Positions 9,875 through 52,300 of a stretch of DNA of 64,000 bases are shown here, piece by piece. The stretch comes from an uncultured Candidatus Saccharimonas sp. (GTDB lineage: Bacteria > Patescibacteriota > Saccharimonadia > Saccharimonadales > Saccharimonadaceae). Location: contig CAURDS010000001.1 of assembly GCA_963524215.1 (NCBI GenBank), positions 99,625-163,624 on the forward strand. Direction: 5' to 3'. Under the pieces are notes generated by a model, which saw nothing but the letters and a program-made list of their open reading frames with translations, did not search any database and was not told the origin of the DNA. The position numbers and the translations under genes are program-made. Positions within the stretch are counted from its first letter, which is position 1. Every line of letters begins with the position of its first letter.

Positions 9875-10453
9875 CTTGTCACCGAGAGCTTTAAGAGCGA
9901 TCGCTGAACATTCTAGATGTCAACTAGGAAAACCCATCCTATCGCGGTACTTCCATTCCATATCGCGCTTTTTCCATTTTCGTTAATAGACCATTTCCAC
10001 AGAGTGAAATCTGAAATATTTTTCTTTTATAAATTGAAATCGACTCGCGTTCCAGACTTTAAGCCTGTTAGATCTAGTTTTGCAAAATTAGCATAGTGAG
10101 GAAACTTGGCGGTATCAAAATAAATCCCATCAGAAGTTTCATAGGTGCAACCTTTTGCTGTTAGGGTGTCAATGATTTCTATCTGTTCTTGAATGAAACT
10201 AGTTACTCTAGTGAGATGATTTGGAGCTATCAAGTTTAGGCCCTTCATACCTTGCTTGAATTTATTAGTATAAAAATTCGCCACCTCCCATGACGTCTTA
10301 CCAGACTAAAATATCCCAATAAATACTGCCCAGTTTCCGATATGTGGCTCAACATAAACAATTGGACTACAAAATGTAAATTTTAACATTCTGTGGATCA
10401 ATTGACTAAAATATTTCTATTTTTCGGTGTGGAGTATTGTAGAATTTTAACAT
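9875..10453 (-). pseudogene. cysS: Decayed 5' part of a second cysteinyl-tRNA synthetase gene
   Basis: MLKFYNTP..., PHIGNW, TYETSDGIYFDTAKFP, DFTLWKWS and HLECSAIA align to the intact cysS at 50817-52217, with stops, frameshifts and an internal deletion. Confidence 0.85.
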
Positions 10454-10481
10454 GTTATGCTAATAATATTTTACTATAAAT

Positions 10482-32180: not shown

Positions 32181-32669
32181 ATGGAAAATCACGCTTATTC
32201 TGATAAAAATCTTGAAGAATTTTTGCAAAAACATTTTGGTGTTAATTTTGGAATTGAAGAAGTTATTTCGCGTAATCTTTCGGTTGGATATTCAGCCGAA
32301 GCCACAATTTTCAAAAGCAAAAAAGGTCGTGTTTATGCTTTTATTTCGCTTGAAGCTCGTGCAACTTTGGGCGATATTCAATATATTCTTTCAAAAATGA
32401 ATTTAAAACCTGCTTATTTCTTTCCGCCAAGTGGTTTCGAAAACTATTTTTACGACCGTGCCAAGGTGCAATTTTTAGAGGTATTCCCGGGGCGCCATGA
32501 TGTGAAAGATGAAGAATTGCGATATTACAAAAAACGCGTGCTTTATAACCCTGCCCTTGTTGAAATTTCTGAAATCCGTGATGGTGAAATTCGCTGTTTT
32601 AATGCTGATTCTATTGGTTCGTGGCGAACAGCTCAAAGGTATTCTTACAAAAAAATTTTAATGAAATAA
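32181..32669 (+). CDS. Hypothetical protein directly upstream of the pilin locus
   Basis: 162-aa ORF; TGCTAAAAT lies 6 nt before the ATG. Confidence 0.75.
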   Translation: MENHAYSDKNLEEFLQKHFGVNFGIEEVISRNLSVGYSAEATIFKSKKGRVYAFISLEARATLGDIQYILSKMNLKPAYFFPPSGFENYFYDRAKVQFLEVFPGRHDVKDEELRYYKKRVLYNPALVEISEIRDGEIRCFNADSIGSWRTAQRYSYKKILMK

Positions 32670-32709
32670 ATTAAAATTGTGGAAAACTAAAAAATCCTCA
32701 AAAAAATGC

Positions 32710-32738
32710 TTGCAAAATGATTGTGCTTATGGTTTAAT
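32710..32738 (+). promoter_or_regulatory. Sigma70-type promoter of pilin A
   Basis: TTGCAA-17-TTTAAT with extended TG. Confidence 0.6.
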
Positions 32739-32765
32739 GGTTGCATACGGACAGACCGTAAATAA

Positions 32766-32957
32766 AAATAACAACAATAATCGTTCATTAGAAAGGTGGA
32801 TTTTCAGTATGAACTCAATTAATAAAAACAATAAAAAAGGTTTCACAATTATTGAAGTTGTGCTTGTGCTAGCTATCGCAGGTCTTATCTTCTTGATGGT
32901 ATTCTTAGCACTACCTGCCCTACAACGAAGCCAACGAGATACGCAACGAAAGAATGA
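32766..32957 (+). repeat. Left arm of perfect 192-bp inverted repeat (pilin 5' UTR and N-terminal coding region)
   Basis: Base-for-base reverse complement of 33844-34035. Confidence 0.97.
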
Positions 32958-33279
32958 TGCTTCACGATTGCGCGCAGCAGTGACTGACTATACTTCAAAC
33001 AACCGAGGAAAATTACCTTGGGATGGAGGTGGTCTAAATAGCGACTTCATTAGCAAATATATCACAACGAATGATACAACAACATTTAACGATCCTACAA
33101 CAAACTCTAAATACACAGTTAATACTGCTACTGGAGAAACAACTGCACCAACTACACTCGGTGAGATGAAAGTTTCTAACCAAGCTAAATGTGGCACAGA
33201 TGGAGCTATCGTAGCTGGTAGTGGAATTGCCGTTTCTGTTAAGACTGAAAATGGCGTTGCAAACTGCGTTGAAGGTTAG
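32809..33279 (+). CDS. Type IV pilin A (156 aa)
   Basis: Class III signal KKG|FTIIE, hydrophobic helix, C-terminal Cys pair. GAAAGG SD supports ATG 32809. Confidence 0.9.
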   Translation: MNSINKNNKKGFTIIEVVLVLAIAGLIFLMVFLALPALQRSQRDTQRKNDASRLRAAVTDYTSNNRGKLPWDGGGLNSDFISKYITTNDTTTFNDPTTNSKYTVNTATGETTAPTTLGEMKVSNQAKCGTDGAIVAGSGIAVSVKTENGVANCVEG

Positions 33280-33298
33280 TATTTAATCTATAAAACTT

Positions 33299-33332
33299 AA
33301 TTAAATAACTCTCTTTGGGGAGTTATTTAATT
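33299..33332 (+). terminator. Terminator of pilin A
   Basis: AATTAAATAACTC...GAGTTATTTAATT. Confidence 0.8.
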
Positions 33333-33417
33333 TTGTGAAAGTCTATTCTATTCTACTAGCTTTAATAATGAGTTTATTTTAGAATTGCCGGATACTAAAG
33401 ACACATTTTATGCCTAC

Positions 33418-33452
33418 AATAAAACAGCTTCCTTACGAAAAGCTGTTTTATT
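33418..33452 (-). terminator. Terminator of pilin B
   Basis: AATAAAACAGCTT...AAGCTGTTTTATT. Confidence 0.8.
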
Positions 33453-33467
33453 TTATTAAGATTGTAT

Positions 33468-33992
33468 CTAGTTATTTACGCAGTAGAATCCACCAGCTTC
33501 TAGAACTATTCGAAGTGCTACTTTACCTTTGTTTCCTTCTTCTCTTCTCACTCCGTCTGGTTGTGATGGATCGCATACTCCATTTGCTGACCATTCAATA
33601 TCTACATATTTAAAATAATCATTGTATTCTAGCTTGTGCGGAGTTCTGTCATATACTGCATAGTTTCGCCCACTTGGGTCCTTCATTTCTTCGCCATCTT
33701 TGAACAAATAATTTTTCACAAATCCTGTTGCACCTTTATCTTCTTTTGGAAAATCTCCTAAAGTAGCTTCTCCTTGATTGGAAGGTAGTTTTCCTTTATT
33801 GGCGGCTCGATATTCATTTACCGCTGCTAATATTCTACTTAGGTCATTCTTTCGTTGCGTATCTCGTTGGCTTCGTTGTAGGGCAGGTAGTGCTAAGAAT
33901 ACCATCAAGAAGATAAGACCTGCGATAGCTAGCACAAGCACAACTTCAATAATTGTGAAACCTTTTTTATTGTTTTTATTAATTGAGTTCAT
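33468..33992 (-). CDS. Type IV pilin B (174 aa)
   Basis: First 50 aa identical to pilin A; different C-terminal domain with a Cys pair. Confidence 0.9.
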   Translation of the reverse strand: MNSINKNNKKGFTIIEVVLVLAIAGLIFLMVFLALPALQRSQRDTQRKNDLSRILAAVNEYRAANKGKLPSNQGEATLGDFPKEDKGATGFVKNYLFKDGEEMKDPSGRNYAVYDRTPHKLEYNDYFKYVDIEWSANGVCDPSQPDGVRREEGNKGKVALRIVLEAGGFYCVNN

Positions 33993-34035
33993 ACTGAAAA
34001 TCCACCTTTCTAATGAACGATTATTGTTGTTATTT
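33844..34035 (-). repeat. Right arm of perfect 192-bp inverted repeat
   Basis: Reverse complement of 32766-32957. Confidence 0.97.
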
Positions 34036-34049
34036 ATCTGTATGATATT

Positions 34050-34078
34050 ATTAAACCATAAGCAAGATAAAAAATCAA
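34050..34078 (-). promoter_or_regulatory. Sigma70-type promoter of pilin B
   Basis: TTGATT-17-TTTAAT; shares TGCTTATGGTTTAAT with the pilin A promoter. Confidence 0.55.
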
Positions 34079-34092
34079 TATTTTCAAATATT

Positions 34093-35412
34093 TTATTGAT
34101 TTTTAAGTTCCAAAATAATTAAGTTTTCAATATGCGGTGTTCGTGGGAAGAAGTTATAGCCACGAGTGTAAATTATCTCATATTTTTTACTTAAAATTGC
34201 CGCATCACGTGCTTGCGTTGTTGGGTTACAGCTCAAATAAATCACCTTTTCTGGCTCTATCTCAAGAATCTTTTCGCAAACTTCACGGTTCATTCCGGCT
34301 CGCGGTGGGTCAACAATTAAATTTGCACCTTTTTTAATGAAGTCTAAAGCTTTTTCACTTGGTGACAAGATGGCTTTTGCAGTTTTTTCTCGCCCAAGCT
34401 TTGTGATATTTCTTTGCATTTCTTTGACTGCTGGTTCGTTAATTTCGACCAAAGTTAGATCACCTGCACCGATTGTTAAACCAATTGATCCTACACCAGA
34501 ATATAGATCGACTGTTGGTTTTGAAATATCGATGAATTTTTTCATGTCGCGCAAAGCTTGTTCATAAACTGGCAAATTTATCTGGAAAAAGCTCTCGGTT
34601 GCATAATTAAAATTCACACCAAGAACTGAATCTTGCAGATTTTCTTGGTTTTGGCTTTGAATCTTTTTAGTTATCACGCTGGCTGGCGATTTTGGGTTTG
34701 AAAAAATAATCTCAAAATTTTTAAATCCAAGGCTAGTTATTTCTTCTTTCGAAAATGGCTTAAACCTCTCATCTTTTACATAAAGTTGGGCTGAAATTTC
34801 ACCTTTTTGGTTCGCGCGAATTAATAAAGTCTTCAAATCTCGACTTGCAGTTTTTCTATTTCGTAAAATTGCAAGCACTTTTTGGCCTGCTTGGTTGATT
34901 TCTGGAGTAGCTAAACTTGTACCAAAAACTGGGATTTTTCCTTTTCCTCCACGTTTAAAAAACGCTAAATTTAGCTCGCCATCATTTTCATTTTCTTTAG
35001 ATTTTTCCCACCAAAATGAAAACTCCACTTTATTGCGGTATTCAAAAATTTTACCATTAGAATAAAAATCTTCTTGGTTTTTGAGTTCAATTTTTTCTTG
35101 GCGAAAACTTTCGAAAATTAGTGCCTGTTTGGTTTTTTGCTCGAAATCAAAGTTAAAAATCTGCCACGGGCTAGTTGAAAGAAAACTCTCCTTATCTTTT
35201 GGTTCAATTCTCTCGGGCGAACTTTCGAAAATTTCAACCGCAAAACCCTCTACAAAACTCGATTTACTTTTTGTAATTTGAATTTTTGCGGTTTCATTTG
35301 GTAGAACTCCCCAGGCAAAGATTTTTTTGCCATTTTCAAGCGCGCCTAAGGCTTGCCCGCCAGGCGTAATTTTATCAAATTTAGCTATTTCGAACTTAAT
35401 TTTCCGTGCCAT
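34093..35412 (-). CDS. RlmD/TrmA-family m5U RNA methyltransferase
   Basis: YRNK, FFQIN, DLYSGVG, DPPRAG, YLSCNP.TQARD, FPRTPHIE. Confidence 0.9.
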   Translation of the reverse strand: MARKIKFEIAKFDKITPGGQALGALENGKKIFAWGVLPNETAKIQITKSKSSFVEGFAVEIFESSPERIEPKDKESFLSTSPWQIFNFDFEQKTKQALIFESFRQEKIELKNQEDFYSNGKIFEYRNKVEFSFWWEKSKENENDGELNLAFFKRGGKGKIPVFGTSLATPEINQAGQKVLAILRNRKTASRDLKTLLIRANQKGEISAQLYVKDERFKPFSKEEITSLGFKNFEIIFSNPKSPASVITKKIQSQNQENLQDSVLGVNFNYATESFFQINLPVYEQALRDMKKFIDISKPTVDLYSGVGSIGLTIGAGDLTLVEINEPAVKEMQRNITKLGREKTAKAILSPSEKALDFIKKGANLIVDPPRAGMNREVCEKILEIEPEKVIYLSCNPTTQARDAAILSKKYEIIYTRGYNFFPRTPHIENLIILELKNQ

Positions 35413-50816: not shown

Positions 50817-52217
50817 TTATTTATATTCCCAAAAACTCTTTTTTGGCGTATCGCGTAAAACAATATTTTTCGAAAGCAATTCATCGCGAATTTTATCGCT
50901 TTTTGCCCAATCTTTTTCAGCACGAGCGGCATTTCTTTCGATAATCTTCTGTTTAATTTCATCTGGAATATCGGGCGTTGAACCAAGCAGATTTAGCCCC
51001 AAAAGATCGTCTATAAATTCTAAAAGTTCAATTAGGTTTTGGTAATTTAGTTTTTCGGGGTTTGCTTTAATTATTTCACTAAAAACCTCATCAATTTTTG
51101 CTAAAGCTTTTGGCGTGTCGAGATTTTCATTAATTTCTTCAAGAATTGCATTTTTAGCAGCAAGGCTTGGAATTTCTCCTTCGCTTCCTTTAATTTGCCA
51201 ACGCATATTTGCAATGTTTTGCCAATTTTTGAGCCGATTCTTAGCTGCTTGCAGGCTTTCAAAATTAAAGTTGCTTTCGGTTTGATATTGGCTTTGTAAA
51301 ACAAACATTTTAAAATCTATTGGCGAAAACCCGCGAGACTTCAGTTCTTCAAGGTTAAAGCCATTACCAAGTGATTTCGAAATTTTTTGCCCTTCACTTT
51401 TCATATGATTACAATGCAGCCAATAATTCGAAAAAGTCTTACCTGTGAAAGTTTCACTTTGAGCAATCTCATCTGTGTGATGAACTGGAATATGGTCAAT
51501 TCCGCCAGTGTGAATATCGATCGTTTCATCTAAAGTATTAATCGCAATTGCCGAGCATTCTAAATGCCAACCAGGGAAACCCATCCTTCCACGAAATTCC
51601 CACTCCATGTCGCGTTTTTGGCTTTCTGGCGACCATTTCCAAAGTGCAAAATCGCTTAAATTTCGCTTTTCAGGGTTGAAATTTACACGTGCGCCAGCTT
51701 TTAAATTATCTAAGTCGAGATGTGCAAAATTGGCATAACGAGGGAATTTTGCTGTATCGAAATAAATACCATCACTGGTCTCATAAGTAAAACCTTTTTT
51801 CGAAAGTTCTTCAATAATTTTAATTTGTTCAGGAATAAAATCGGTAGCTTTCGAAAGATTATCAGGTTTAACTAAATTAAGTTCTCGCATTCCATTCAAA
51901 AATTCTGCCGTATAAAATTCAGCGACTTCCCAAGCTGTTTTTCCTTCTTGCCTTGCGCCTTTTTCTAGTTTATCTTCGCCGTCATCTTCATCGCTAACTA
52001 AATGTCCGACATCAGTAATATTCATTGTGCGAGTAACATTATAGCCGTTTAAACGCAAAGTTCGAACTAAAATATCCCAATAAATAAATGCTACCCAGTT
52101 GCCAATGTGTGGGCTGGCGTAAACTGTTGGCCCGCAAGTGTAAATTTTAACATTTTTTGGGTTTATTGGGTGAAATTCTTCAAGTTTTCGATTTGGCGTA
52201 TTGTAGAATTTTAACAT
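50817..52217 (-). CDS. cysS: Cysteinyl-tRNA synthetase
   Basis: CGPTVY, HIGN, GWHLECS, DIHTGG, KISKS. Confidence 0.97.
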   Translation of the reverse strand: MLKFYNTPNRKLEEFHPINPKNVKIYTCGPTVYASPHIGNWVAFIYWDILVRTLRLNGYNVTRTMNITDVGHLVSDEDDGEDKLEKGARQEGKTAWEVAEFYTAEFLNGMRELNLVKPDNLSKATDFIPEQIKIIEELSKKGFTYETSDGIYFDTAKFPRYANFAHLDLDNLKAGARVNFNPEKRNLSDFALWKWSPESQKRDMEWEFRGRMGFPGWHLECSAIAINTLDETIDIHTGGIDHIPVHHTDEIAQSETFTGKTFSNYWLHCNHMKSEGQKISKSLGNGFNLEELKSRGFSPIDFKMFVLQSQYQTESNFNFESLQAAKNRLKNWQNIANMRWQIKGSEGEIPSLAAKNAILEEINENLDTPKALAKIDEVFSEIIKANPEKLNYQNLIELLEFIDDLLGLNLLGSTPDIPDEIKQKIIERNAARAEKDWAKSDKIRDELLSKNIVLRDTPKKSFWEYK

Positions 52218-52300
52218 ATTGAAACTATTATATCAGATTTAGCTTTCGAAATCAAAAAGAAAAACCCGCCGAACGGGCGAGCTTTTCGAAAGGCTTAAAA

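Follow-up and report, generated by a model that had tools for sequence, protein, structure and literature searches.

Concerted evolution of inverted-repeat arms in a convergent type IV pilin pair of Saccharibacteria, with possible rare inversion

In the window, that is, the whole stretch of 64,000 nucleotides analysed here from an uncultured Candidatus Saccharimonas sp., two convergent type IV pilin genes share 5' ends that form a perfect inverted repeat, and the comparison of assembled cassettes shows that these 5' ends are repeatedly homogenised within each genome. The interpretation towards which we lean, with little more than even confidence, is that of a major/minor pilin pair kept alike by conversion and flipped only rarely by RecA-type recombination, in the manner of the slpA/slpB genes of Lactobacillus acidophilus and not as a programmed switch.

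The pilin pair and its inverted repeat

Pilin A (156 aa, 32809..33279, forward strand) and pilin B (174 aa, 33468..33992, reverse strand) are both type IV prepilins, judged by a prepilin G/F-x-x-x-E motif and a long N-terminal helix, and both match PF07963 and TIGR02532 above cut-off. The predicted model of pilin B (pLDDT 74.9) consists of a long N-terminal helix (residues 14-64) and a beta-strand head; Foldseek returned no match to this model at E<=0.001, the weak top rows including pilins. The left arm of the repeat (32766..32957, forward strand) and the right arm (33844..34035, reverse strand) are exact reverse complements of 192 bp each and enclose 886 bp. Each comprises a 43-nt leader, with a Shine-Dalgarno-like site at 32790-32799 in the left arm, and the first 50 codons of its pilin, identity extending up to ...QRKND. 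Beyond the arms, the heads of A and B are 25% identical in amino acid sequence and use the same codon at 12 of the 31 positions where the residue is identical. The stop codon of pilin A is followed by a terminator-like 15-bp hairpin at 33299..33332 on the forward strand (fold z -6.4) and that of pilin B by another at 33418..33452 on the reverse strand (z -4.8); both fold strongly, and neither is listed by the program-made annotation scan. A sequence-only reading of the window had claimed a perfect repeat of these dimensions around two different globular domains, each with its own terminator, and on re-computation the geometry proved exact and the domains distinct. An (ATAGA)n microsatellite lies between the terminators (33342..33355, reverse strand), with 2 copies here; in relatives (L007, L050, L051, L054-L056) the number ranges from 1 to 12 or more and the microsatellite breaks assemblies, and nowhere in the genome of the window is it expanded. 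In this genome (614 kb, 91% complete, assembled into 8 contigs), the 192-bp pair is the sole inverted match at >=90% identity and E<=1e-20. A direct repeat pair of 85 nt with 80% identity was also observed, at 10372-10456 and 52136-52220, the copies being 41.8 kb apart.

The two pilins also differ in composition. The content of Gly, Ala, Ser and Thr (GAST) is 38.6% in pilin A and 23.9% in pilin B, the head of which is charged, and by the GAST ranges given in the available part of a study of TM7x pilins (10.1101/2024.11.25.624915), pilin A is likely a major pilin while B does not look major-like. As reported in the same part of that study, PilA2 of N. lyticus TM7x is a highly expressed pilin with a GAST content of 38.7%, and host binding falls by half when it is deleted. 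PilA1 and PilA2 are small prepilins too, PilA2 and pilin A are alike in GAST content, and that portion of the study describes no paired or invertible pilins.

Upstream of each arm lies a putative promoter. The left promoter-like site (32710..32738, forward strand) has a -35 element TTGCAA (32710-32715), a 17-nt spacer with TRTG-n, and a -10 element TTTAAT (32733-32738), a layout kept in 14 of the 15 single-pilin loci examined. The right one (34050..34078, reverse strand) has a -35 element TTGATT (34078-34073) and a T-rich 17-nt spacer leading to TRTG-n-TTTAAT. The distance from the -10 element to the shared GTTCAT is 44 nt on the left and 31 nt on the right; different -35 elements, a common -10 region and unequal leaders had all been described before and are borne out here. 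Both sites are missed by a sigma-70 scan, the rule of which demands A at -10 position 2. Throughout the genus, pilin promoters have a non-canonical -10 element (TTTAAT or TTAAAT, T being second) after TRTG-n, seen here at 32728-32738 and 34050-34060.

A 5-bp hairpin (32746..32760, forward strand), which is missing from the right unit of the window, lies where the left transcript is predicted to start. The fold of the left leader as a whole is weak when taken alone (z -1.2). In the 16 cassettes compared below, this hairpin is intact at all 16 left sites and at 4 of the 16 right sites, having been deleted in 9 and broken in 3; of the 15 single loci examined, 14 could be matched, and all 14 have it intact. 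As its stem is invariant, it offers no covariation evidence; a role in mRNA stability may be envisaged. The two expression sites look unequal, and the left is probably the stronger because the conserved hairpin is retained there.

Homogenisation of the arms

The identity of the arms exceeds what the encoded protein requires. The genome also encodes a third pilin, on contig C6, which has 35 of 36 arm residues in common with the pair but only 9 of 34 codons; since the same residues are specified by different codons, protein conservation alone cannot account for the identity of the arm DNA, and recombination is needed. For the comparison of arms, 16 cassettes with both arms were available, 11 from genomes and 5 from metagenome contigs. 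Within a cassette the arms are on average 1.56 bases apart, with no difference in 11 of the 16, as against 7.0-7.3 between cassettes; among 22 variable columns, none holds a side-fixed difference, and 0 of 100,000 permutations reached a value as low as the observed within-cassette distance, a figure to be read with the kinship, and thus non-independence, of the cassettes in mind. Such likeness within cassettes, with nothing fixed to either side, indicates that recombination between the arms is ongoing. The right leader of 7 of the 16 cassettes is now of the long left type, the replacement reaching as far as the shared -10 island and ending there, as would be expected of exchange bounded by homology. 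The suggestion that perfect identity beside diverged domains implies continuing recombination or conversion is thus sustained, both by the codons of the third pilin and by arms that evolve in concert. The arms reach 233-240 bp in some strains, and no short invariant recombination site distinct from coding constraint was seen by eye in their alignment. The heads, by comparison, are hypervariable, far above the left flanking gene: mean identity across relatives is 84% for head A and 88% for head B, against 96.5% for that gene.

The left flanking gene (32181..32669, forward strand) encodes a protein of 162 aa of unassigned function, for which no Pfam or NCBIfam match was found. It lies left of the pilin in relatives and serves throughout the genus as a marker of the ancestral pilin locus; the left flank also contains uvrD. 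The right flanking gene (34093..35412, reverse strand; TRAM and PF05958) encodes a tRNA/rRNA uracil-5 methyltransferase, and in several relatives it comes directly after a single pilin. Twelve of the 35 genus genomes, representing 12 species-level genomes, carry the pilin pair; in 15 genus genomes examined there is a single pilin of the family at the locus or moved from it, and in 3 (G024, G012 and G007) the assembly is broken at the arms. Because this position is occupied in single-gene relatives by an A-type head or by another one, often with the methyltransferase gene next, we infer that A on the left is the ancestral arrangement and that the right unit was added. The spacer of the right promoter resembles that of the sister clade's single locus, and P0272 (38 contigs), which was not found among the 35 genus genomes, is a close relative of B carrying the sister clade's N-terminus, which suggests that pilin B may have been imported from that clade. 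Matches to the pilin N-terminus number 48 in G016, 32 in G004 and 23 in G008, compared with 2-9 in other genus members.

Homogenisation of this kind extends beyond the genus. Among 80 pilin loci of Saccharibacteria examined, 70 of them outside this locus, there is 1 convergent pair of a second lineage, located between pilD and pilC in G051 (L109:3983-5205), in which 130 bp over the N-terminal helix are repeated exactly in inverted form. The same pair in G084 (L176), one of 7 relatives with a match among 60 searched, has an exact stretch of 114 bp with its own shared variants and lies in the same orientation as in G051. Tandem pilin pairs, which are unable to invert, have exact shared stretches of 252 bp (L023) and 172 bp (L119). 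As tandem and convergent pairs both show exact stretches, homogenised N-termini are common among neighbouring pilins in the group, invertible or otherwise.

Orientation of the cassette and competing explanations

According to the interpretation that we favour, one clade of the genus would have gained a second complete pilin unit, made up of a promoter and pilin B and set in inverted orientation after the ancestral pilin A. The agent acting on the arms would be ordinary homologous recombination (RecA, RuvABC) and not a site-specific invertase, most events being conversions and a minority being crossovers that flip the 886-bp core. A flip would place B behind the left, probably stronger, site; the A-left state appears dominant and is probably favoured, and flipped molecules would form a rare reserve, as in slpA/slpB. 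RecA, RuvB and RuvC are encoded in the genome, which accords with the RecA route proposed from the sequence, and, as was also proposed, both orientations contain two intact genes.

Orientation was read from assembled contigs. Among 20 informative assemblies, 16 have the orientation of the window and 4 are flipped (binomial p 0.012), or 16 versus 1 if three doubtful joins are dropped. Eleven of the 12 genomes are in the window's orientation, the exception being G003, and of the 9 metagenome contigs found, 5 are unflipped, 3 have a flipped left junction and 1 is uninformative. Wherever a single contig spans both arms, as 13 do, its orientation is that of the window; a complete flipped cassette was found on no contig. 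Since neither the right flank nor the 5' portion of head A is present in the assembly of G003, both competing junctions are missing there and the left-B join arises by default; G003 was for this reason rejected as proof of inversion. A toy simulation of de Bruijn assembly, run on the unflipped DNA of one strain with error-free and unpaired reads, produced false left-B joins in 18 of 420 runs when k-mer coverage was 1.4-3.8 and in 0 of 180 runs when it was 5.1-7.6. The flipped joins of L052 and L058, with coverage 2.4 and 2.8, fall within the range of these simulated artefacts, and the tail of L052 joins unrelated genes; that both come from one strain was rejected, as 108 of 2617 bases differ. 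L051, which is flipped on a contig of 34.5 kb at k-mer coverage 6.6, in the range where the simulation gave no false joins, is, on its assembly, the best single evidence for a real flip.

Public proteins offer a second view, for gene callers often place the start of these pilins 24-44 residues too early, inside the promoter (P0004, P0028, P0038, P0059), and the extension tells the flank and the orientation. Each of the four junctions between a flank and a head is represented among public proteins with over-called starts. Among those listed, the left-A junction is found in at least 58 sequences (185 contigs for the 57 that have counts), left-B in at least 5 (18 contigs), right-B in at least 3 (9 contigs) and right-A in at least 1 (2 contigs), in an uneven tally to which each cluster contributes at most 15 members, in which A clusters outnumber B clusters, contig counts may be redundant, and right-side extensions are readable solely in long-leader strains. 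The longest contig is shorter than 5 kb for 5 of 5 left-B proteins compared with 12 of 57 left-A proteins among those listed (Fisher p ~0.001). The same B or A protein can be found in both arrangements (alleles of L054, L056 and L039), the flipped ones on short contigs, and one B allele is present on 8 contigs as left-B, possibly redundant deposits, versus 4 without the extension. In assembly X2 both flanks end inside the shared leader and the orientation is unreadable; the leader pattern had 0 matches in viral contigs.

The rare flips that we favour are weakened by the lack of any contig across the full flipped cassette, by the doubtful status of G003, L052 and L058 and by the short left-B contigs, as well as by the 4 right sites that keep an intact hairpin. 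Conversion alone is a possibility that we regard as real though rather doubtful, in which the two paralogous pilins are co-expressed, conversion and allele exchange homogenise their assembly helix, inversion is negligible and flipped contigs are assembly errors. Tandem neighbours that cannot invert have long exact stretches, every arm-spanning contig has one orientation, as do the second-lineage cassettes of G051 and G084, and the flipped joins, on short and low-coverage contigs, can be reproduced from unflipped DNA; G047, G011 and G005 have two different arm haplotypes each, as a recent single-gene import would give. L051, with its long contig and higher coverage, speaks against this explanation, as do the 8 left-B contigs of a single allele, redundant as they may be, and the RuvB and RuvC genes. 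When recombination occurs so often that inverted repeats of 200 bp stay homogeneous, some of it results in crossovers.

A programmed and frequently switching phase variation of the pilins, possibly served by a trans-acting site-specific recombinase, appears improbable, even though the genes are intact in either orientation, 12 species-level genomes have retained the cassette, a second lineage has a like architecture, the heads are hypervariable and 12 of the 16 right sites have lost the intact hairpin in two different ways. The orientation bias argues against it, and so do the arms themselves, which are long and freely drifting homology with no short invariant site seen by eye. No recombinase gene adjoins the cassette, which is flanked by the 162-aa gene and uvrD on the left and the methyltransferase gene on the right, in agreement with the earlier remark that no invertase is adjacent, and Piv/IS110 (PF01548, PF02371) had 0 matches in the 91%-complete genome. 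This genome encodes two tyrosine recombinases and one serine recombinase, none tied to the cassette. Of the 12 cassette genomes, no more than 3 contain the tyrosine recombinase on C2. The other, a XerC/D-like gene, lies tail to tail with a minor pilin cluster (L059:1162-3373, G000:C3), a neighbourhood that would favour a programmed switch. The large serine recombinase is 30 kb from the cassette, just beyond the end of the window (L168:2958-5268, G000:C1), where it ends at a tRNA-Gln and is accompanied by a small replication-like gene; the region looks like an integrated element.

The reversible major/minor swap put forward in the sequence-only reading is accordingly upheld in part: the unequal sites and the contrast in GAST content between A and B agree with it, but flipping in cells and a selected reversible switch both stay conjectural, given the bias of 16 in 20, the artefact-prone joins and tandem pairs of equal identity. 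The comparison of relatives that it called for showed the cassette in 12 of 35 genomes and, over 20 informative assemblies, the two orientations at 16 versus 4, most flipped joins being artefact-prone. That the perfect identity is merely an assembler consensus of similar but different arms, a danger acknowledged in the same reading, is very improbable, for although the assembly is in 8 contigs and those of G024, G012 and G007 break at an arm, 5 of the 16 cassettes resolve arm differences of 1-10 bases, the shared variants are lineage-specific, and G006, a genome in one contig, has arms that are identical over 192 bp with 5 differences just upstream.

Relation to known systems and significance

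The slpA and slpB genes lie in opposite orientation and have about 280 bp of 5' identity in common. It is this S-layer gene inversion of L. acidophilus, as described in the available part of its account (PMC3666127), that the cassette would work most like: oppositely oriented paralogues with long 5' identity are present here as well. In that system slpB is silent and inversion has been demonstrated, whereas here both genes have promoter-like sites and inversion is suggested by 4 apparently flipped assemblies of 20, 3 of them explicable as artefacts; furthermore, the segment is shorter than 1 kb and its products are type IV pilins. Shufflons, of which IncI pilV is an example, rely on short repeats and an adjacent recombinase. 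Together with partial intergenic invertons, they join a constant 5' part to alternative 3' domains via inversion, as set out in the accessible portion of one source (PMC10028968), but the present cassette consists of two whole genes and has no adjacent recombinase, the one on C2 being found in just 3 of its 12 genomes. Two type IV pilin genes are switched by inversion in Moraxella bovis and M. lacunata, according to the available part of another (PMC4073114); that inversion is site-specific and Piv-dependent, while the present arms are long drifting homology in a genome where no Piv/IS110 invertase was found.

It is tempting, though on present evidence unlikely, that Saccharibacteria have repeatedly built pilin switches free of invertases, from convergent pairs in which the shared helix serves as the arm and a flip brings another head under the stronger expression site, changing the bacterial host or surface bound. 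If true, this would be the first phase-variation mechanism for host attachment in Saccharibacteria within the literature searched, where no description of such a cassette was found under pilin inversion, phase variation or invertible repeats in Saccharibacteria or Patescibacteria. Repeats of this type also create false inversions in low-coverage assemblies, which should serve as a warning. Type IV pili mediate the attachment of Saccharibacteria to their bacterial hosts. Should the cassette flip, host choice in an uncultured lineage would be tied to a rearrangement of its DNA; should it never flip, the cassette would still represent a clear case of concerted evolution, with an identical assembly helix maintained beside diversifying heads.
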